Assembly (NCBI RefSeq): GCF_049969415.1
Contig: NZ_JBMFOX010000005.1
Span: 1 to 53,640, forward strand
From: Candidatus Hadarchaeum sp.
GTDB lineage: Archaea; Hadarchaeota; Hadarchaeia; Hadarchaeales; Hadarchaeaceae
Direction of reading: 5' to 3'
Length of the DNA stretch: 53,640 bases
The notes under the pieces are model-generated. The model made no database searches. It saw only the letters and a list, made by a program, of their open reading frames with translations, and was not told the DNA's origin. The position numbers and the translations under genes were made by a program. Of the stretch, positions 22,809 to 48,054 are shown piece after piece; position 1 is the stretch's first letter, and each line of letters begins with the position of its first letter.

Positions 22809-23414
22809 TTGCGCACGGTTAAATTTTGGCAGATAAAGCCGGAGATCAGGATATTGGGCGTTGACGACGGACCTTTTGAGGCGGACCACCAGGGCAAGGT
22901 CCCGCTGGTGGGCGTCGTCTTCCGGGGAGGGCGCTGGCTCGACGGCGTTATGGTCACCGAGATCGAGAAAGACGGGATGGATGTCACCGACCGTTTGATT
23001 GAGATGCTGGTTCGCAGCCGCCATCTGGGCCAGCTCAGGGTCCTGATGGTCGACGGCGTAACCTTTGCTGGGTTCAACGTGCTGGACGTGAGGCGGGTCT
23101 TCAGGAAAACCAGTTTGCCCGTGGTGGTAATCTCCCGGGAAGTCCCGGTGATGGCGGATATCCGCAAGGCGTTGAGGCATCTTCCGCGGTGGAGGGAGAG
23201 GTGGAGGATCATCAAGGCGACGGGCAGGATTTATCCGGTGGCGACGAAGAGCCAAGGCAGGTCGATATACATACAACCGGTTGGGATTAAGCGGGAGGAT
23301 GCCGAAAGGATCGTGAGGTTGAGCTCGACCCGCAGCCTGGTTCCGGAACCGCTACGGGTGGCTCACCTCATAGCCACGGCAATCGTTCGCGGTGAGAGCT
23401 ATGGCCGGGTCTAG
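22809..23414 (+). CDS. DUF99 protein (endonuclease V-like)
   Basis: RILGVDDGPF, DGxD, DGVTFAGFNV, PEPLRVAHLIA. Confidence 0.92.
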   Translation: MRTVKFWQIKPEIRILGVDDGPFEADHQGKVPLVGVVFRGGRWLDGVMVTEIEKDGMDVTDRLIEMLVRSRHLGQLRVLMVDGVTFAGFNVLDVRRVFRKTSLPVVVISREVPVMADIRKALRHLPRWRERWRIIKATGRIYPVATKSQGRSIYIQPVGIKREDAERIVRLSSTRSLVPEPLRVAHLIATAIVRGESYGRV

Positions 23415-23964
23415 GAAAACACGTCGCTTTTTCAAGAGGGCCAAATCCTCGTTGCGGAATTTTTTGAGGCGCCCCGCGGTTAATGGGACCGTTGAGTTCC
23501 TGCTGATGCTGGGCATCCTTTATTTTGCCTTCACCGGGGCCATGATCCTAATCTTCCGAACGGATTCTTTCTGGAGGGGGGTTACCTCCCAGAGCATGAA
23601 GCATGAGGACGACTATTCCTGGCGCCAGTACTACCTCGAGCGGGGCATTGATACCTCTCAGTTTCCGATTCAAGGCGGCTTTGAGCGGGGGGACCTGTTG
23701 ATCATCCAGGGCGTCAGCTCCTTCTCGGAAATAAAGGTGGGCGATGTCGTCGTCCTGGATCAGGGCAGTGGTGTGATACCGCTGGTGCATCGGGTCGTTG
23801 AGATCTGGTATGAAAACGGATCGCCTAGGTTCACGACCAAGGGTGATGCCAACAGCCGGCCCTTGCCCGTTGAGGTGGCCAACCGCCCTGAGCAAATCTT
23901 GGGCAAGGTGATCTTCGTTATCCCCAAGCTGGGCTACATCTCGTTATGGTTCCAGGGGCAGTGA
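23401..23964 (+). CDS. Signal peptidase I (S26, Sec11-type)
   Basis: TM helix, VTSQSM catalytic Ser, GD, VHRV catalytic His, TKGDAN, IPKLG. Confidence 0.9.
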
Positions 23965-39306: not shown

Positions 39307-40459
39307 TTATTTTCAGTATCTCTGTTATCGGTGCATCTGTTCTGAAACCGGTGGGGGAAAAGTGGGTGCGGGAGGCGAAGTAGCCGCATTCCCGCAGGGC
39401 TGAGATCACTCGGTCCATCTTAGGTGGAGATTTCTTAACCAGCCCGGCAACTTCATTGAGGTCATAGAATGTGGGCGGTCCATCGGCTTCCTCGGCGCAC
39501 CTCAGCAGCAGCGAAATTTCATGATGTTTTAACCTGAAGTCCCTCGCCGTCAGGTCTTGAATGACTTGTTGAGTAAATGCCTTGTTGGTCAATTTTCCGA
39601 GCCAGAGGGGGCCGGCGTGGGAGAATTTTCCACCGCACTCGCATTCCCTTGGCAGCTCCGGGATCAGGCCCGGGCTGGTGGTCCTGCGCAGACACTCGTT
39701 GCAGTAGGAGATGTATCCCGTTTCCTTGAGCAACTCATCAGCACGCTGGGCGCTCCGCTGTCCCAGAAGATAAACCCGGAAGTAGTGCTGCGTGGCGTGG
39801 GCCAGAACCGGGCTCAGTGCGATCTCGTGTATCCCCCCGATTCTCTGGGCGAAACCGATCAGTATTCTGATGCCGATTTCGTGGCAGGATTCAGTCTTCA
39901 GCGGCTTGGTCCCGTAGCGGCGCAGGCAGGTTTTGGGGTAGGTCCCTGAGAGCGGGGCGGTGTCGGTGGCCGTCAGCGCCAGCATCCCTCTCCGCGACAG
40001 CGAGCTGCAGGCGGCGTCCAGAAATGGCGCCGGCGAGCCGAATGGATCCAGATCAACAAAATTGAACTTCCCCCGGTTTTCCCGGAGGATGACGTTGGCA
40101 TCGACCGAGCTGGCCTCAACCGAGTTGTCCAGCCCGTTCAGCGCGATGTTCCGCTTGATCAGCTCGAAGGCCTCTGTTGATCGGTCGTTGATGAGGCACC
40201 GGGCGACACCGGTTACCTCGTTGGCGTATCGGAGGCCCCTGATGCCGATGCCGGCGAGAGGGTCGCAGAGGTATAGGCCGTTGAAAGTATCGGAGGCCAC
40301 CTGAGCCACTGAAATCGAGATGTCGCGGCAGAGCTCCATGTGCGGGTTGTAGAAGACTTTGGTGAGTGAGGGGGCGTAGTCACCTGCGCTTGTCCTGAAT
40401 TTCGCTGGGTCCGGTGTTTCGAACCTGGTTTTTCCTTCGGTCAACAAAATCGTCTTCAC
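39293..40459 (-). CDS. trm1: tRNA (guanine-26-N2)-dimethyltransferase
   Basis: VFYNPHMELCRD, GIRGLRY, DLDPFGSP, TATD, GPLW, RTHF...RTDA. Confidence 0.96.
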   Translation of the reverse strand: MKTILLTEGKTRFETPDPAKFRTSAGDYAPSLTKVFYNPHMELCRDISISVAQVASDTFNGLYLCDPLAGIGIRGLRYANEVTGVARCLINDRSTEAFELIKRNIALNGLDNSVEASSVDANVILRENRGKFNFVDLDPFGSPAPFLDAACSSLSRRGMLALTATDTAPLSGTYPKTCLRRYGTKPLKTESCHEIGIRILIGFAQRIGGIHEIALSPVLAHATQHYFRVYLLGQRSAQRADELLKETGYISYCNECLRRTTSPGLIPELPRECECGGKFSHAGPLWLGKLTNKAFTQQVIQDLTARDFRLKHHEISLLLRCAEEADGPPTFYDLNEVAGLVKKSPPKMDRVISALRECGYFASRTHFSPTGFRTDAPITEILKIIKGA

Positions 40460-40523
40460 GGGATCACAATGACTTCTGGGGGATTCAACTATAATAATCC
40501 CAAGCGATCTTGGTTTTCGAATT

Positions 40524-40597
40524 CATAATCATAGTAGTAGTTATCAGGGTTTCGATTGTGGTAGTAACTTATTAAAAAGGCATCATCATAGTAGTAG
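40524..40597. repeat. 17-bp direct repeat CAT(A/C)ATCATAGTAGTAG, two copies 57 bp apart
   Basis: Copies at 40524-40540 and 40581-40597 (16/17 identical); a partial GTGGTAGTAAC lies between them. Confidence 0.8.
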
Positions 40598-40600
40598 AAA

Positions 40601-40616
40601 TTACACAGGTTTATAT
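40601..40616 (+). promoter_or_regulatory. TATA box (TTTATAT, 40610-40616) of the Zn-ribbon/secreted protein gene
   Basis: Ends about 25 nt before ATG 40641, the spacing expected for a leaderless or near-leaderless transcript. Confidence 0.6.
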
Positions 40617-40640
40617 CGGCTCTTTTCCATAGTTTTAACC

Positions 40641-41357
40641 ATGAAGTGCTCTCGATGTGGGTATCAGTGGGAACCGAAGGTCCCGAATCCAAAGGAATGC
40701 CCGCGATGCAAGACTAGGCTGGATTACGTTTCTATGCCTGTGGGGGCACCAAAAAGGTTTGAAAAAAGGGAGGTGAGCAAAGCGATGTCTAGCAAACTTC
40801 CCTGGATTGCGGCGATCATCGTCTTAGCAGCAGCGGCTGCAGCTTGGGCGCTTTGGCCAACTGCCGAGGTGCCGGCTACCGTGCCCTCTGCTGGAGCCAG
40901 GATAACTTTGGCTGCAGGATCCGGTACTGTCTTCGCAGCGCCTCCGGAAAACTCGGGAATTGAAAACATATACATCGTTAAAGCAGGTCAGAACTACAAC
41001 GAAAACTTTAGTGGACTAACGGACAACTATCTGGCAGTCATCTCGTCAAATGGATCCTACGTAACGATTCCCTACGACACACCCTTTGCCATAGTCGTTG
41101 CTGTCACCGGCCACAAAGACAACATGGGCAAGCTCGATAAAGCATATCTGAAAGTAGCGCTGGGTGCGACTACGGATTCTAATTCTTGGAGCATTACGTG
41201 GGATAACTCTAACGACACCAATGAGTACATATTCTACTCGGACGCAACCAAGATTCGAGTAAACGTGGTTTGGGACAACAGTGGCAGTTACTACCAGCTC
41301 CAGGCAGACGACAACCTCAACATCCAACACGTGGATCTCTGGATACGCGGTAAATAG
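40641..41357 (+). CDS. Zn-ribbon-leader plus signal-peptide-bearing beta-rich secreted protein; second in-frame start at 40785
   Basis: CSRCGYQW..PKECPRC N-terminus, GGAGGTGA RBS (40769-40776) 8 nt before ATG 40785, hydrophobic LPWIAAIIVLAAAAAAWALW, then an N/D/S/T/Y-rich domain. Confidence 0.8.
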   Translation: MKCSRCGYQWEPKVPNPKECPRCKTRLDYVSMPVGAPKRFEKREVSKAMSSKLPWIAAIIVLAAAAAAWALWPTAEVPATVPSAGARITLAAGSGTVFAAPPENSGIENIYIVKAGQNYNENFSGLTDNYLAVISSNGSYVTIPYDTPFAIVVAVTGHKDNMGKLDKAYLKVALGATTDSNSWSITWDNSNDTNEYIFYSDATKIRVNVVWDNSGSYYQLQADDNLNIQHVDLWIRGK

Positions 41358-41391
41358 ACGGACCGCTTCAAGCGGGCATAAATATGATTTG

Positions 41392-41420
41392 GGGCACGTA
41401 AATGGCACGTGCCCTTTTTT
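41392..41420 (+). terminator. Hairpin plus U-tract terminator
   Basis: GGGCACGT-AAATGGC-ACGTGCCC followed by TTTTTT. Confidence 0.8.
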
Positions 41421-41496
41421 ATCTTTTAACCAATTTAGTTTGGTGCAAACGGCTTATATTTTCCGAGTAACGACAACTTATCCGAAGGGTGTTAGG

Positions 41497-41967
41497 TTGT
41501 TCGACAAAAAAACAGCCGCGATTTTTGTTTTGGTTCTCCTGGTGGCTGTTGTGGGAGTCGGTTGGCGTCTGGCCGAGTCAAGGTACTCAGTGGTCCAGAC
41601 CCTCCCCGAGGATGTGGAGAACTGGACGCATATCTTCCGCGGATACGAGGCCTATCTCGACAAGAAGATTCACTACTCGGTTGTCTCCGGGTCCAGTATG
41701 GAGCCCACCCTTAAAGATGGCGATCTGGTGCTTTGGGTTGAGGTCGATAACACGTTCCAGTTCCGGGTGGGCGATATCATCATTTACCAGCACCCAACTC
41801 GGCCTTATCTTGACAACATTGTCCACAGGATAATCGAGGTGGGGAGCGATTACCGGGAGAACCAGTTCAAGACCAAAGGGGACAATTCACCCGAGGAATA
41901 CTGGGTTCCCCGCGCCAACATCCATGGGCTGGTGATCGGGGTAATTTACCGGAACGGTTCGAGATAG
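41497..41967 (+). CDS. Second signal peptidase I (S26, Ser-His ER/SipW-type)
   Basis: N-terminal TM, VVSGSSMEPTLKDGD, GDIIIY, IVHRI, TKGDN; TTG start at 41497. Confidence 0.9.
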   Translation: MFDKKTAAIFVLVLLVAVVGVGWRLAESRYSVVQTLPEDVENWTHIFRGYEAYLDKKIHYSVVSGSSMEPTLKDGDLVLWVEVDNTFQFRVGDIIIYQHPTRPYLDNIVHRIIEVGSDYRENQFKTKGDNSPEEYWVPRANIHGLVIGVIYRNGSR

Positions 41968-42285: not shown

Positions 42286-43095
42286 GTGGCGTTGGACCCA
42301 AAGGCTGAGAAAGATAAGAGTAAAAAGTTGCTTTCCTTGCTGAAGCCGGCCAAGGAGCGAGGTATTGAAATCAAGGAAAGGCGGGCGATCATCACCGGTG
42401 TTTTCTCCTGCAAGGGTGGCGTCGGGAAGACGACCACAGTGGCAAACTTGGCCCTGTGTGCCGCGGAGAACTTCAAGGGCAACGTTCTGGCCGTTGACGC
42501 CAACCTCTCCGCCCCTAACTTGGGTCTGCACTTCGGGGAGCTTGACCCCAAGGTCACGATTCACGATGCCCTCGCTGGCGAGATGCCGATCGAGAAGACC
42601 ATCATGGATTATCACGGCCTCGACCTCATCCTGGGTTCGATAGCCTTCGGCGAGGAGGTTCACCTGGTTGACCTCAAGGGACTTTTGGAGCCGCTCAGGT
42701 CGAGATACCGGCTGATACTCATTGACTCCGCCCCGGGCATTGGCGCCGAGGTGATCGCGGCGATGAAGATCTGCGACGAGATAATCATCGTCACCAACCC
42801 CGAGATCCCGACGGTGGCCAGCACCCTCAAGACGTTCCGCGCCGCCGAGAGGCTCAAGATCCCGATTTTGGGGGTGGTGGTGAACAAGGTCAGGAACGAG
42901 CCGTTCGAGCTCACGATCAAGGACGTGAAAAAGGCGTTGGGGTGGCCCATTGTGGCGGTTATTCCTGAGGACGTAAAGGTCAGGGAGGCCACCGCGGCCG
43001 GGATCCCGGTGGTTTCGTATTATCCCAAGTCTCCGGCAGCAGCGGAGTTCCGGAGGCTGGGCGAGTTTATGATCAAGCACGTTGCCAAGAGCTAG
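42286..43095 (+). CDS. minD: MinD/ParA-family ATPase
   Basis: Deviant Walker A KGGVGKTT, VDAN, IDSAPG, GVVVNK, IPED..V. Confidence 0.9.
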   Translation: MALDPKAEKDKSKKLLSLLKPAKERGIEIKERRAIITGVFSCKGGVGKTTTVANLALCAAENFKGNVLAVDANLSAPNLGLHFGELDPKVTIHDALAGEMPIEKTIMDYHGLDLILGSIAFGEEVHLVDLKGLLEPLRSRYRLILIDSAPGIGAEVIAAMKICDEIIIVTNPEIPTVASTLKTFRAAERLKIPILGVVVNKVRNEPFELTIKDVKKALGWPIVAVIPEDVKVREATAAGIPVVSYYPKSPAAAEFRRLGEFMIKHVAKS

Positions 43096-43107: not shown

Positions 43108-46100
43108 CTAATCTTCTTTCTTTTCTTGCAGTTTTCTCTTTTTCTCGGAGATCTCTTTCAGCCTCTCCAGACCAGCCAGCTCTTTCGGACCTAACTTTTC
43201 CTGCACCGGTGCCTCCTCCGGTTTTCCGATGACGCGGTGCCTCGGAGCGAGAACCGCCCGCCTGATCCTTTTCAGGAGCAAGTAGTACCGCGAGGGCGTG
43301 AGGAGGCTGTAGATGATGGAGAAGGCCGCCAGCCCTCCCGCCATCGCCAGCATGGTGAAGAACTCGTAGGGCACCGAAGGCAGGGTTGGCGTGATTCCCC
43401 CGACCGGCGTGACCGGTTTGATCGGCATTACCGGTTTTCGTTCACCGGCAGCAGCGAACACCGATAGGCCGGGTGAAATCGCTTCGTAGTAGACGCAGGT
43501 GCTGTCCTCGTAGAGGTATTCGGTGGGGAGCCGTTGCCAGCCTCCGGAGAATCTGTAGAGGTAGATGGTTTTCTCATCAACCCCGTTTATTTCCAACCAC
43601 GCTTTTTCCAACCTGAAGCGGATGATCACCGAGGCCAGGAAAAGGTCCGGCGCGTTGGTCTTTATTTCCATAAAGACTGGGTAGACTATTCCAGATGGCG
43701 GTTGGGATGGAACTTTGCCTTCCTTTTGAAGTTCTTGGTACGAAGCTTGTTCCACCGTAACTATCACGTTTTCCAAGTTGGTCGTGAAGATTATCTTCAC
43801 GTCGGTCACGCATATCTTGAACTCGGTGAAGTCGAATTTGGCGAACATGCCGCCGGGTATCGAGGCGATTTTTGCTGTGGCGCCTTTAATTTCCACGGAG
43901 ACGAGCTCTATCGAGTCGCTGGCGGCCGCGGAAATCAGTCCGGCGTTGTCCCTAACTCTGACGTACACCGTCCTCGTGCCGCTTCCCGTTGGCAGTAGGT
44001 ATTGTTTGGCCGGTGAGAAGGGCTCCCACGCCGTCCAGATCACGCCGTCGTTGCTGAACTGCATCTGCGCCACTCCTGAGGCCTGGTCAACCGCGAGGAT
44101 GGTAATCAGCACCGATGTTGAGTTGGTGGTTGTGGCGTTGTTGTTGATGACCACCGCGACTATCGACGGTGGAACGGTGTCGACTCCGCAGGAGGCATCG
44201 GCAGTGGCGGGGGCGAGTTCCACGTTGCCTTTCTCGTCCACCGCTATCGAGTAGAACTGGTAGTAACCGTCGCCGGAGGGTGCCGTGAAGGACCATGAGT
44301 TCGGCCCCGTGTTGTCGCCAAAGTTCTCCCAGGAACCCCAGCTCAGCTTGTCCTTGGAATATCGGTACCACAGTTGAACGGTGGCCACGTAACCACTTGG
44401 GCTTGGATCCGAGGCCGTTGCTGTGATGGTAAATGGTTTTGTGGTTATCCAGAATGGTGTGAGGGCATCGACTTTGGAACTTGGCACTCCCGGAGCCCTG
44501 ACGCTGATATTCCAAGCCTCGACTAGTTTCCAGGCAACAGGCGCCCTGACCACTCCGGTCCAGGTTTCTAGAAGTTTCCAGCTAGATGTGGCCCTGACGG
44601 TAGCAGTCCAGGCGTCGACGAGGTTCCATACCATCGTAGCTCTGACGGTAGCGGTCCAAGATTGGATCAGGCGCCATTCGGCTGTAGTCCTAATCGCTGC
44701 CGTCCAGCTCTCGATCAGCTTCCACTGGGCGGTTGCCTGAACCGTTGCCGTCCAAGACTCAATGAGGTACCACTGGGTTGGGGCCCGAACCGTCGCCGTC
44801 CAGCTCTCGATCAGGTTCCATTTGTATGCTTTTGCAATGACACCTGCGTAATCGATCATGAGGCTCGTCCTGAGATTATCATTGTCGGGCTGCACGTAAC
44901 GTACTCTCACTTCTCCATTTACGTTGTCGATCAGGTTTGTCCCCTCGACGTTGTAGGTGAACACAGTATAGGTGGCCGAGGTCAGATTGCCGATGTTTTC
45001 CCATTGTCCGGTCGAAAAGTTGTAGAGGTAGACGCTCACGGGTTCGGTGTCGCCCGCTAGGTAGTATCCGATTTCCAGACGGTAGCCGTAGTAGTTGTCG
45101 AGCGGTATGCCGGTGATATTGTGCTGGACGTTCTCGCGGTAAGCGGGGGACCGAGGCTTGAATTCGATCCAATCCAACTTCAGGTCAAATCGGGTGCTGG
45201 TCACCTTAACACCAGACACCCTGATCTTCCAGTTTCCCGAGGCGTCCCTGAATTGGGTCGGGTTTGTTGTGATGGTTTGAGTCTGGGTCTGGTCTGTGTT
45301 TGCCGCGCCTGAGGTGTAGCTCAGGTACCCGTCCTCTCCGCTCTCCGCGTATCGCCCAAGGCCATAGTTGTAGAGCTGGAGGACCACGTTCACGCTGTCC
45401 GCCGTCCACTGGCTGTCCACCGTCCAAGTCAAGCTGTCCCACTGTTCCGTGTTCGAGGTGCCGGTGAACTCGACGTTCTCAGTAAAGGCACTGGCCGACG
45501 GCAGGCGCAGTGCAATTAACCTTGCGTTCCTAATGTACACAGCGGTCCCTGCGGTCTGGGTGTAAAAGGAGATGGTGGCCGTCTGACCGCCGGAGAGGTT
45601 GGTGAGTCTTTTGGATATCGTGAAGGTGGGCCACTGGGCGGTTGCGGCGACGTCCACAATCGAGTTTCCGTAGTCCGTGCCATTTATGGTCAGTCTGGCT
45701 CCGACGTAAACGGTGGTGCTTGAGGTGTTGATCTGGCCGGTGGCGAGGAACAGGTAGTCACCGGTCGAGCTCGGCGTGAAACTCAGCGTCGTCTTGGTCG
45801 TGCCCGGGGCGGTCGTTGTCGTGCTGCTCAGGCTGTCGGAATTCTCGGCAAAGACCTCCTGAAAGACGGCGGCGGTCGGTATGGCGTAAAGGTGAACGTT
45901 CTTGTAGGTTAAGGTGCCGGCGCTGGTTTTCATCTGGATTTTTATCGTGTGGCTGGATCCACCGCTGAGGGAGACCACATCGTGAAACCCGGCGCTGAGA
46001 TAGTGGCCTGCGTTTGCTTGCCGGCTCCAGAACTCTCCACGGTTTTCGCCGTCCACGAGGAACAGTACTCCGTTGTAGTTCGCAGCGGCGGAGTTCGTCA

Positions 46101-48054
46101 CGTCGGCATGGGCCAGGATGAGCCAGTTCTCGGTGATATCCGGGGTAAAGGTCAGGGTGGCGATGTCGGTATAAGTGGTCGAGGTCGTCGTACCGTCACT
46201 CGGCTCCGAGAGTTTGAAGTTGTTGCCGATTCTGATGGCTATTATCCTCGCGTTTTTGATGAATGCAGTATTTGAAGCATTGGTCGTGGCGTACTGGATC
46301 CCTATCGTGTGCGACGCCGCTGTCAAATTGGCTACCTTGAAAGCCACGAAGCTGCGGTAGATGTCGGCGTCTGTATCATCCGCCACAAATGTTTCGGCGA
46401 CGCTGGTCCCGTCGATCGTCAGTTGCGCTTTGGTGGTTCGGGCCGCAATTGTACTTATTCTTTTGATTTCCGCTGTGGCGATGATGAGGTAGTTGTCCTC
46501 GAGCGCAGGCGTCCAAGTTAGCGTTACCTTGTCCTGATAGGTGGTGCTCGTGGTTGTCGACTGGGCCTCGCTCTCGGCGACCTGCACATCTCCTGAGAAA
46601 GCCGAGGGATAGCTTTTGAAGGTCATGTAGGTGCTGTTGTCGTTGCTCTGCAGATTTCCGACCGTACCGCCGACGAATTTCGTGTTGCCCAAGAGGTTGT
46701 AGCCTGAGGGGTAGTAGTATCTAAAGCTCCCAATGTTATTCTCAAAGATGTTCTCGTAATTTCCATCGCTGTAGGTTTGCGCCGCCGCGAAGTTGCTCGT
46801 CCCCCCCTCATAGACGGTCTCGGTGGTGACGGGGAAGAAATTTTCATCGCTTTCAAGGGGGTCCTTTATCTGGTCAAATTCAAGGTAGGCCGTTTCCGGG
46901 TCGGAGTTCAAGATTTTCAGATCGAAGGTGTCGCTGCGGCCGTTCATGTTGGCCAGATACACCTTGTAGTAGCCCTCACTGGTTATCACTGGGAACTGTG
47001 TGATCTTCTCAGAGCTGTCGGGATAATAGACCTCAATCCAAGTGTTGAGCCCCTGGGTGTTTCTGACGTAGACGGTGATGTCATTCCAGGGGTTAAGCTC
47101 CTTCTGGAAGGTAACCCGCACCCATTCACCCTCGGAGATTGGTTCCGACCAAACGCCGTCTCTGGTTTTAACCGCCGCTGAGATATCGGAGAGGAAGTTT
47201 CGGTTTTCGTCGAGGTGCACGGCCTGCTCAATCAAAATTTCCACCCAATCCTCGCCGCTGGCGCTTCCGCCGCTGTAGATCAGCTCGGTCCGCAGATGGT
47301 ACTTTTTCGGCTGCAGCGATGCTGGCTTCGGTGATTCAAAAATGTAAGATCTTGTAACCGAGTTATCGACCCTGCCGACCTTCCACTCTATCTTGCTGTA
47401 TCGTTCATCGTGCTCGCTGACGGTCCCCCCGCCAGCGTCGACGATGGTCCACTCCTTGGGGAAATAATCGATTAGGACGGCGTTCTCAACCGGCGCGGAA
47501 ACGTTTGCAGTTATTTCCATCGTTACTGGGGATAGTGCCGGTGCCTTGCGCTGGCCGCCTTGCTCGCCTGAGAGCCGCCGCTCGAAGGTCACGCTGACGC
47601 CGCTGATGGTGACCTGAAACGGCGCGGCCGCGGCCAGAAGCCCCCCAAGGATCTCCAACAGGAAGAATAACGTGATTAGCTTGAGCAGCGACCCTCTGGA
47701 TCTGGTCCAGCCGAAGCCTCGAGGCGATTTTAACTTGCCTGAATTTTCTTTTCCGCAGTTCACTTTCCTCTGCAGTTGTTTTTTACCGGAGCTGAACTTG
47801 TCGCCCGAATTGACTTTCAGTTTTCCCGAGCTTCTTGAGCCGACATCAGGCGCTCGCTTGATTTTTATAAGCTTGGTGCGGGCTCCCGCGGATTCAGGCT
47901 TAGATTTACCCATTAGGTTCGCGAAATTCCTGATTTTATCCAGAAGATGATTGATGAGTTTTGTAGGAAAGAGTCCCCAGGCTGGAGATGGCTCCGTCGC
48001 TAAAAGCCTTCCCTCCGGTGGGGACTCCCCAAATTCCTTGGACGGTCTATGCAA
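43108..48054 (-). CDS. Giant cell-surface glycoprotein with PGF-pre-PGF domain and C-terminal TM anchor (start uncertain, 48054 or 47913)
   Basis: Hydrophobic segment LLKLITLFFLLEILGGLLAAA, many beta-rich Thr/Asn domains, IRFRLEKAWL..LYRF..WQRLPT..YEAISPGLSVFA (PGF-pre-PGF), Pro-rich linker, TM helix, basic tail. Confidence 0.88.
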   Translation of the reverse strand: MHRPSKEFGESPPEGRLLATEPSPAWGLFPTKLINHLLDKIRNFANLMGKSKPESAGARTKLIKIKRAPDVGSRSSGKLKVNSGDKFSSGKKQLQRKVNCGKENSGKLKSPRGFGWTRSRGSLLKLITLFFLLEILGGLLAAAAPFQVTISGVSVTFERRLSGEQGGQRKAPALSPVTMEITANVSAPVENAVLIDYFPKEWTIVDAGGGTVSEHDERYSKIEWKVGRVDNSVTRSYIFESPKPASLQPKKYHLRTELIYSGGSASGEDWVEILIEQAVHLDENRNFLSDISAAVKTRDGVWSEPISEGEWVRVTFQKELNPWNDITVYVRNTQGLNTWIEVYYPDSSEKITQFPVITSEGYYKVYLANMNGRSDTFDLKILNSDPETAYLEFDQIKDPLESDENFFPVTTETVYEGGTSNFAAAQTYSDGNYENIFENNIGSFRYYYPSGYNLLGNTKFVGGTVGNLQSNDNSTYMTFKSYPSAFSGDVQVAESEAQSTTTSTTYQDKVTLTWTPALEDNYLIIATAEIKRISTIAARTTKAQLTIDGTSVAETFVADDTDADIYRSFVAFKVANLTAASHTIGIQYATTNASNTAFIKNARIIAIRIGNNFKLSEPSDGTTTSTTYTDIATLTFTPDITENWLILAHADVTNSAAANYNGVLFLVDGENRGEFWSRQANAGHYLSAGFHDVVSLSGGSSHTIKIQMKTSAGTLTYKNVHLYAIPTAAVFQEVFAENSDSLSSTTTTAPGTTKTTLSFTPSSTGDYLFLATGQINTSSTTVYVGARLTINGTDYGNSIVDVAATAQWPTFTISKRLTNLSGGQTATISFYTQTAGTAVYIRNARLIALRLPSASAFTENVEFTGTSNTEQWDSLTWTVDSQWTADSVNVVLQLYNYGLGRYAESGEDGYLSYTSGAANTDQTQTQTITTNPTQFRDASGNWKIRVSGVKVTSTRFDLKLDWIEFKPRSPAYRENVQHNITGIPLDNYYGYRLEIGYYLAGDTEPVSVYLYNFSTGQWENIGNLTSATYTVFTYNVEGTNLIDNVNGEVRVRYVQPDNDNLRTSLMIDYAGVIAKAYKWNLIESWTATVRAPTQWYLIESWTATVQATAQWKLIESWTAAIRTTAEWRLIQSWTATVRATMVWNLVDAWTATVRATSSWKLLETWTGVVRAPVAWKLVEAWNISVRAPGVPSSKVDALTPFWITTKPFTITATASDPSPSGYVATVQLWYRYSKDKLSWGSWENFGDNTGPNSWSFTAPSGDGYYQFYSIAVDEKGNVELAPATADASCGVDTVPPSIVAVVINNNATTTNSTSVLITILAVDQASGVAQMQFSNDGVIWTAWEPFSPAKQYLLPTGSGTRTVYVRVRDNAGLISAAASDSIELVSVEIKGATAKIASIPGGMFAKFDFTEFKICVTDVKIIFTTNLENVIVTVEQASYQELQKEGKVPSQPPSGIVYPVFMEIKTNAPDLFLASVIIRFRLEKAWLEINGVDEKTIYLYRFSGGWQRLPTEYLYEDSTCVYYEAISPGLSVFAAAGERKPVMPIKPVTPVGGITPTLPSVPYEFFTMLAMAGGLAAFSIIYSLLTPSRYYLLLKRIRRAVLAPRHRVIGKPEEAPVQEKLGPKELAGLERLKEISEKKRKLQEKKED
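44485..44820 (-). repeat. Seven tandem 48-bp (16-aa) repeats, consensus WxLIESWTATVRAxxx
   Basis: WNLIESWTATVRAPTQ / WYLIESWTATVQATAQ / WKLIESWTAAIRTTAE / WRLIQSWTATVRATMV / WNLVDAWTATVRATSS / WKLLETWTGVVRAPVA / WKLVEAWNISVRAPGV. Confidence 0.95.
45499..46587 (-). repeat. Three tandem ~120-aa homologous domains inside the giant surface protein
   Basis: Each has a Thr-rich start, TLT[W/F]TP (TLSFTP in the third), [N/D][Y/W]L[I/F][I/L]A, [I/V][D/N]G, and ends [K/R]N[A/V][R/H]xxAx. Confidence 0.85.

Follow-up and report, generated by a model that had tools for sequence, protein, structure and literature searches.

A putative dual-start zinc-ribbon gene and the signal peptidase gene beside it in Hadarchaeota

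Layout and distribution of the locus

The window considered here, i.e., the whole stretch of DNA that was analyzed, comprises 53,640 nucleotides (nt) of Candidatus Hadarchaeum sp. (positions 1 to 53,640 of the forward strand of contig NZ_JBMFOX010000005.1, NCBI RefSeq assembly GCF_049969415.1). At 40641..41357, on the + strand, it contains an open reading frame (ORF) of 238 amino acids (aa) that is made up of a zinc ribbon, a linker, a hydrophobic segment and a beta-sandwich, and in which a Shine-Dalgarno (SD) sequence precedes a second, in-frame start codon. A gene for an archaeal type I signal peptidase lies just downstream. Comparison with related genomes favors, with moderate confidence, the reading of this locus as a two-gene module specific to Hadarchaeota, consisting of a dual-start gene and a peptidase dedicated to its product.

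The long isoform, encoded by the whole ORF, begins with a C4 zinc ribbon (residues 1-29, 40641..40727, + strand), whose ligands are Cys3, Cys6, Cys20, and Cys23. In the AlphaFold2 model of the 238-aa protein, this module consists of short strands and two CxxC knuckles, with a predicted local distance difference test score (pLDDT) of 85-92; the knuckles read CSRCG and CPRCK in the window protein, and CPRCG is found in most homologues. The first-pass annotation, made from the letters of the window, had described a CxxC-x14-CxxC ribbon: the four cysteines stand, and the spacing is in fact CxxC-x13-CxxC. The basic linker that it placed next to the ribbon is found at residues 30-48 (40728..40784, + strand), where alignments and a pLDDT of 40-48 indicate disorder; this region holds an A-run and the internal SD sequence GGAGGTGA (40769..40776, + strand), which is complementary to the 3' end of 16S rRNA. 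As the annotation also had it, the frame runs without a stop past this strong ribosome-binding site to ATG 40785 (40785..40787, + strand), which is separated from GGAGGTGA by 8 nt, encodes Met49 and would start a short isoform of 190 aa. There follow a hydrophobic signal or anchor segment (approximately residues 55-70, 40803..40850, + strand; helix 57-70 in the model) that ends in Ala-Trp-Ala (68-70), and a predicted extracytoplasmic beta-sandwich (residues 71-238, 40851..41354, + strand; pLDDT mostly >90) with the conserved motif SGIENIYI. The gene is followed by the hairpin terminator already spotted in the first pass, a terminator-like element on the + strand (41391..41421) made of a 9-pair hairpin (41391-41415) and the T-run TTTTTT.

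A whole-protein search returned 90 homologues at E<=1e-3. The comparisons reported below were made on 75 unique loci with a zinc-ribbon ORF of at least 90 aa, from which nine duplicates had been removed beforehand; 28 of these loci came from the whole-protein search of genomes and the other 47 from a metagenome scan seeded with zinc-ribbon peptides. The gene is present as a single copy in the source genome (1.47 Mb) and was matched in 43 of 66 Hadarchaeota genomes, representing 15/20 genera, and in 21 of the 26 that are at least 90% complete. Its closest homologues carry the names Candidatus Hadarchaeum or Hadarchaeota in the database. When one genome per prokaryote species was scanned with zinc-ribbon peptides as seeds, near-full-length matches were nearly all Hadarchaeota-titled, and a few others bear no title beyond 'archaeon', 'Methanobacteriota archaeon' or 'Hodarchaeaceae'. 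The ribbon without the rest of the protein was also found in Woesearchaeota, Pacearchaeota, Bathyarchaeota, and other groups. An all-against-all HMMER comparison gathered 212 representatives at E<=1e-3, many of which are free zinc-ribbon mini-proteins of 38-70 aa. No account of this family was found in the literature as far as it was accessible to us; the family is nameless and hence cannot be searched by name.

Two starts in one reading frame

No part of the protein is better conserved than the zinc ribbon. Its four cysteines are invariant in all 75 loci, including the 28 found without ribbon bait, and 15 of the first 28 residues are invariant across 16 sequences down to 34% identity. Synonymous codons vary freely at these invariant residues, six being used for Arg22, four for Pro17, and six for Leu27. 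A stop codon between the ribbon and the second start or hydrophobic segment, which the first-pass annotation had named as the sign of a chance fusion, occurs in 0/75 loci, and the homologues do retain the in-frame fusion. Invariant residues with freely varying codons, together with the unbroken frame, argue that the ribbon is translated in this frame and that the fusion is maintained by selection.

These data bear directly on the idea that the short form is the sole functional product and the ribbon extension an annotation accident caused by an open upstream frame. Several database records do start at the internal ATG or at Met32, and the internal start has the better ribosome-binding site; annotation pipelines now place the start of this gene at three different codons, Met1, Met32, and Met49, even in orthologues that are >80% identical (P0001, P0002, P0003, P0005, P0006). 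Against it stand the strong conservation of the ribbon with its freely varying synonymous codons, its uninterrupted frame in every locus, and a promoter-like TATA box at a constant distance from ATG1, so that we give this explanation almost no credit. Met32 itself (ATG 40734, the start of database protein P0002) was considered as a conserved start and rejected, as it is present only in the five closest loci; L020 has a Met at position 33, near Met32 of the window protein.

The internal SD sequence is conserved as well. GGAGGTG(A) precedes the internal start in 69 of the 75 loci (24/28 for those from the genome search), and it does so in two codon registers, across families f1, f4, and f5 of the phylum. 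In one register, seen in 45 loci, the reading is xxG-GAG-GTG, with AAG, AGG, ATG, GTG, CGG, TTG, GCG, or CCG as first codon; the latter can specify K, R, M, V, L, A, or P and has G as its third base without exception. In 24 loci it is read as GGA-GGT, with GAA, GGA, or GTA as third codon. For comparison, the background shares of the codons involved are 0.52 for GAG, 0.32 for GTG, 0.34 for GGA, and 0.17 for GGT in these genes. The encoded peptide differs accordingly (Lys-Glu-Val versus Gly-Gly-Glu), while the heptamer and its distance of 8-9 nt to the start stay constant. Two registers and a varying peptide, with constant heptamer and spacing, point to selection at the nucleic-acid level rather than at the protein level, i.e., the internal SD is selected as RNA, independently of the residues that it encodes.

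The start codon shows the same constraint. Most loci (67/75) have ATG, 2 have GTG, and 3 have GTG one codon upstream, giving a start at fixed spacing in 72 of the 75; moreover, wherever Val is found at or beside this site it is always encoded by GTG (5/5, plus L021 and L030). Three loci (L008, L042, L043) have no internal start, and in two of them, L008 and L043, the SD is lost too. Whether homologues keep the internal ribosome-binding site was the second check that the first-pass annotation had called for; both this site and its start codon are kept, and the conservation is seen at synonymous sites. The translation machinery fits with such an internal site: the 16S 3' ends in the genome bin read GGATCACCTCCT, and SD-like 5-mers concentrate at -15..-9 upstream of the first ATG (223 of 1106 long ORFs), which together indicate that SD-led initiation is used by this organism. 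A 16S 3' end is found on each of five short contigs (C69, C73, C74, C85, and C136), with flanks that differ, and the bin may hold rRNA fragments of more than one organism.

The motif might also serve as an elongation pause or another signal in the mRNA, in which case GGAGGTG-N8-ATG would have no role in initiation and only the long form would matter; a pause before the hydrophobic segment could let the zinc ribbon fold or target the nascent chain to the membrane. In line with this, the motif is placed 8-9 nt ahead of the codons at the start of that segment, many genes of this genome tolerate internal SD-like heptamers, and the open frame by itself guarantees the long form alone. However, a start codon is needless for pausing, yet ATG or GTG is kept at fixed spacing; Val is never encoded there by anything other than GTG, and SD and start have been lost together in L008 and L043. 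In addition, no conserved RNA structure could be detected around the site: RNAalifold, run on 37 of 74 distinct flanks, returned no predicted pair. Finally, pausing through pairing with the anti-SD is disputed even in bacteria. On balance, we regard this explanation as improbable. A hairpin sequestering the SD was examined separately and discarded; the minimum-energy fold does pair GGGAGGUG with ACUUCCCU, but with a z-score of only 0.06. Frameshifting or transcriptional slippage on the A-run ahead of the SD was also considered; for the stimulators known from bacteria, the SD would stand on the wrong side, since it is located downstream of the run.

Initiation at the first start probably follows another route. 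As stated in the first pass, a TATA box lies shortly before ATG 40641 and a ribosome-binding site is absent: the TATA-like sequence TTTATAT (40610..40616, + strand) is separated from ATG1 by 24 nt, with no SD-like 5-mer. Among relatives, 55 of 74 loci have their best TATA-like 8-mer at a start position of -33..-30 relative to ATG1, and 68/74 have no SD-like 5-mer before ATG1, such a 5-mer being found in only 6; across the genome, first ATGs show a mild enrichment of TATA-like hexamers at -41..-28. The usual spacing between TATA box and transcription start in archaea would put the mRNA start at or next to the AUG. From the TATA spacing and the lack of an SD, we infer that the mRNA is leaderless, or nearly so, at ATG1. 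The two starts appear to use different initiation modes, leaderless and SD-led, on what is possibly one mRNA. Initiation at the 5'-terminal AUG would yield the long form of 238 aa, which would cross the membrane once, keep its ribbon in the cytoplasm, and expose the C-terminal domain outside; ribosomes recruited by the internal SD would yield the short form of 190 aa, in which the same beta-sandwich follows an ordinary signal peptide. Given the conservation of both starts, it is probable that both isoforms are made.

Several points weigh against this conclusion and temper it. The case for a dual start rests wholly on conservation among genomes that are related and hence not independent, and in the 47 peptide-seeded loci the conservation of the ribbon is partly there by construction. 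Six of the 75 loci are without a good SD and three without a start, so that the short form is dispensable in some lineages. The replacement of Met by Val is a conservative change for the protein too. Finally, GGAGGTG has 372 copies in the genome, 294 of which are not beside a usable start; within a single genome, the internal SD is not significant, and it goes beyond chance only through its conservation in relatives.

Dual starts as such are not without precedent, the S105/S107 holin of phage lambda being an example. In archaea, internal in-frame initiation is known but rare: Cas11b is made from the cas8b frame in Haloferax volcanii and is called the first archaeal case, being the single archaeal protein for which such initiation has been demonstrated by experiment, in the portion of the report available to us (PMC11899642), and the accessible part of a ribosome profiling study of the same organism lists 27 putative in-frame internal start sites (PMC7261190). 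As with Cas8b/Cas11b and lambda S, the gene described here would combine two starts in one frame with a shorter product that lacks an N-terminal part able to change its behavior and, as with lambda S, both predicted products are membrane proteins. It differs from these cases in its apparent combination of leaderless and SD-led modes, in the distance of 48 codons between the starts, and in the nature of the extra part, a folded zinc ribbon; in contrast to Cas11b, its dual start is predicted from the comparison of genes.

The exported domain, its peptidase, and neighboring genes

The peptidase that the first-pass annotation placed next to the gene is an archaeal signal peptidase I with a TTG start (41497..41967, + strand), which scores above the cut-off of TIGR02228 (71 bits versus 51.85, E 9.5e-20). 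A peptidase gene is found directly downstream of the ribbon gene in 22 of 30 loci; among the other 8, five have less than 450 nt of downstream sequence, two have peptidases in a convergent cluster, and one has none within 1.25 kb. The window also encodes a second archaeal signal peptidase I (23392-23964; TIGR02228, 55.4 bits; no Pfam match at E<=0.001), which lies amid housekeeping genes and is probably the general enzyme. With this second enzyme in a housekeeping context, the peptidase at 41497-41967 is probably dedicated to its neighbor's product, in the way SipW is dedicated to TasA. A second cassette, in which a ribbon-less beta-sandwich paralogue stands beside a second peptidase gene, is present in L019, L022, L023, L024, L020, L026, and L029.

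Cleavage of the signal peptide by this peptidase is likely; against it, a small-Trp-small motif (Ala-Trp-Ala in the window protein) closes the hydrophobic segment in only 47 of the 75 loci. The enzyme would most likely cut both forms past the hydrophobic segment, and cleavage of the long form would leave a zinc-ribbon stub held in the membrane.

Little can be said from homology about the domain that would be exported. No Pfam family was matched by the C-terminal domain of the window protein, nor by that of any of the 49 aligned members; a Foldseek search of the Protein Data Bank (PDB) gave nothing at E<=0.001, and no sequence relative was found among solved structures. The best fold match, obtained with VIA-align, had a Z of 5.6 and corresponds to generic Ig-like domains, while a structure search of the Atlas gave no usable match. 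Prediction of a homo-oligomer from three copies of residues 72-238 returned a score of 0.00, which speaks neither for nor against polymerization.

The gene arrangement recalls a known export system, in which a matrix or fiber protein that is secreted is paired with a dedicated archaeal-type signal peptidase. An archaeal TasA-like protein, AbpA, and the SipW signal peptidase dedicated to TasA are described in the part of the source that was available (PMC9245690). [quoted passage not shown] In contrast, searches at E<=0.05-0.1 give no sequence match to TasA/camelysin (Peptidase_M73), TasA and AbpA are absent among the fold matches shown, and the TasA signal peptide comes without a cytoplasmic domain.

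The remaining neighbors, as identified by family search, are ordinary: a divergent Trm1 gene, an FtsJ/RlmE methyltransferase, and a MinD/ParA-like ATPase (42286-43095), the last of which recurs in the loci of closer relatives. An Rfam scan of 40200-41600 found nothing at E<=1. Further along, at 43108-48054 on the - strand, the window carries a 1648-aa ORF with no Pfam match, a hydrophobic stretch close to its C-terminus, and about eight tandem repeats resembling W-x-L-[IV]-E-[SA]-W-T-A-x-V-R; it may encode a surface protein.

A gene-specific 13-mer and the N-terminal module

The first-pass annotation had further proposed that the ribbon feeds back on repeats upstream of the gene. The repeats are indeed there, as two copies of a 17-nt direct repeat (family D1) on the + strand: a distal one, CATAATCATAGTAGTAG (40524..40540), which includes the 13-mer ATCATAGTAGTAG, and a proximal one, CATCATCATAGTAGTAG (40581..40597), whose 13-mer core begins 56 nt before ATG1, just upstream of the TATA box. 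A match to the 13-mer on the + strand, with up to 3 mismatches, begins at -70..-40, at about -56, in 69 of 72 loci, whereas only 68 of 5000 windows of 130 nt drawn at random from this genome pass the same test; the distal copy is found mainly in the closest relatives. The core CATA[AG]TA[AG]TAG has only 2 matches in the 1.47-Mb genome, both in the upstream repeats of this gene. Across the 66 genomes, the exact 13-mer occurs 21 times, 20 of them just upstream of or within this gene, and the element accompanies zinc-ribbon genes in 71/72 loci; it is lacking from seven ribbon-less paralogues, which in some genomes come after a second peptidase gene. Most likely, the gene is regulated through this element, which it shares with hardly any other gene; the proximal repeat at 40581-40597 may be its operator or an upstream activating site.

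A second copy lies within the gene. In the window it is decayed (ATCATCGTCTTAG, 40815..40827, + strand, 3 mismatches) and coincides with Ile-Ile-Val codons of the hydrophobic segment; in L005, L020, L025, L031, and others, it is found in frame at +172..+196 and encodes Ile-Ile-Val-Val-Ala. Relatives read ATC ATA GTA GTA G at this site, with at most one mismatch to the 13-mer in 52 of the 75 loci (0 mismatches in 24, 1 in 28, 2 in 9, 3 in 8, and more in 6). Codon usage there is skewed toward the 13-mer, with ATA used for 69/72 Ile (background 0.38) and GTA for 54/66 and 45/50 Val (background 0.18). Inspection by eye for covariation between the two copies gave no clear pattern: L013 and L054 carry an identical variant in both, and the copies differ from each other in L014, L051, and L063. 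The simplest idea for this direct repeat across promoter and coding region is that it provides two sites for one sequence-specific factor.

The nature of the N-terminal module offers a second clue. In L021, P0050, and P0096, the zinc ribbon is replaced by a CcdA-type ribbon-helix-helix (RHH) domain, which scores above the cut-off with E 6e-8 to 4e-7; the linker and the SD are retained, as is the remainder of the protein. RHH is a classical operator-binding fold. The L021 locus has no 13-mer, either upstream of or inside the gene, at up to 3 mismatches. Upstream of its gene, at 1159-1200 of L021 (genome G060) and before a TATA-like box, lies a perfect 12-nt inverted repeat, TGTATTTACATT-N18-AATGTAAATACA; its first ATG has its own GGAGG, which indicates that the L021 mRNA is leadered. 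The RHH-fused form was found only in G060 among the 66 genomes, other RHH matches being small free genes. Taken together, the RHH swap with its changed upstream element and the private 13-mer favor a nucleic-acid-binding, self-regulating role for the module. It would probably be a sequence-specific binder targeting ATCATAGTAGTAG, the 13-mer present both in the codons of the membrane segment and upstream of the TATA box, and binding there would couple export or processing to gene expression.

Two further arrangements of the ribbon were observed. A 137-aa paralogue (L191, i.e., G042:C2, and L091) keeps the ribbon, linker, GGAGG, ATG, and hydrophobic segment, and has a short outside part. In genus g14 (L123-L126; genomes G048, G052, G049, G050), a homologous ribbon makes up the N-terminal end of an approximately 735-aa protein, whose ATP-cone-like start suggests that it may be an anaerobic ribonucleotide reductase. 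A related element, GTAGTAATAGTAATAA, is located at -50..-85 of this fusion gene; when one mismatch is allowed, it has 5 matches in five genomes, 4 of which precede ribbon genes.

An alternative that keeps both isoforms is that the ribbon is a protein-docking module, with a separate transcription factor binding the 13-mer; the partner could be another cytoplasmic protein, the translocon, or the nearby ParA/MinD-type ATPase, whose gene (42286-43095) recurs in closer loci. Archaeal zinc ribbons can bind proteins, as illustrated by CdpC of Haloferax, whose zinc-ribbon domains anchor FtsZ1 according to the available part of a preprint (bioRxiv 10.64898/2026.07.16.738847). The ribbon has, in addition, no detectable DNA-binding family, and its free homologues and one of its paralogues come without the 13-mer. 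Against docking, a DNA-binding RHH domain can take the place of the ribbon in one lineage, with the upstream element changing alongside, and a 13-mer all but confined to this gene would leave its binder a single target, as is typical of autoregulators. We consider docking possible and rather unlikely.

That the N-terminal module itself acts on the 13-mer, in an autoregulatory manner, is a proposal that we make tentatively and to which we give somewhat less than an even chance. Several observations stand against it. The zinc ribbon falls below every Pfam and NCBIfam cut-off and resembles no known DNA-binding family in these collections: its best family match is PF23470, with 15.7 bits for a cut-off of 26, RpoP (NF001605) scores 14.2 for a cut-off of 63, and the best solved chain, the only one returned by a profile search of PDB sequences, is Pf0610, at E 0.48. 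The ribbon paralogue type L091/L191 has no upstream 13-mer, and free ribbon mini-genes, examined as possible carriers of the 13-mer, had to be set aside, since 8 of the 9 complete ones are without it. The one exact 13-mer found away from the gene consists of Ile-Ile-Val-Val codons of an unrelated permease-like gene, so that coding alone can yield this sequence, and the internal site was picked as the best match, so that part of its codon bias is built in. Lastly, the RHH swap concerns one lineage, with locus DNA from a single locus (L021).

Brz of Halobacterium salinarum, a small CPxCG zinc-finger protein, regulates transcription of a neighboring gene, as reported in the part of the article available to us (PMC2253796). 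The window ribbon shares with Brz, by description, a short C4 module with a CPxCG-like knuckle, and differs from it in its attachment to a membrane segment, Brz being a free soluble protein. To our knowledge, direct DNA binding by small zinc-finger proteins of the Brz type is not established.

Membrane-bound regulators provide another parallel, i.e., the one-component regulators of the ToxR/CadC type and the zinc-binding anti-sigma factors that are released by site-1 and site-2 proteases. Like these, the long isoform would combine a small cytoplasmic, possibly DNA-binding domain, a single membrane pass, and an outside domain, with a protease gene adjacent. Unlike them, it shows no detected homology to such regulators, its tether would be a signal peptide, and its 'sensor' domain is also encoded tether-free in the same gene; archaea, as far as we know, have no sigma factors. 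By extension, an export-sensing feedback loop contained in one reading frame can be imagined, in which the N-region of a signal peptide works as a gene regulator. The long isoform would be inserted in the same way as the short one. After the cut by the peptidase, an intramembrane protease would free the ribbon (or, in one lineage, the RHH domain) into the cytoplasm, where it would bind both the promoter copy of the 13-mer and the one in the codons of the membrane segment; the amount of regulator released would tell how much of the protein has been exported, with the gain set by the balance between leaderless and SD-led initiation. This complete circuit, close to the secretion-sensing loop proposed in the first pass, is speculative and in our view unlikely as a whole.

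What this Hadarchaeota family offers is an unusually clean comparative signature for a dual start, with the same heptamer kept in two codon registers and two apparent modes of initiation. If its N-terminal module does bind the 13-mer, the gene would in addition encode an archaeal membrane-tethered regulator that uses a signal peptide as its tether, and such a regulator would link protein export to transcription or translation.

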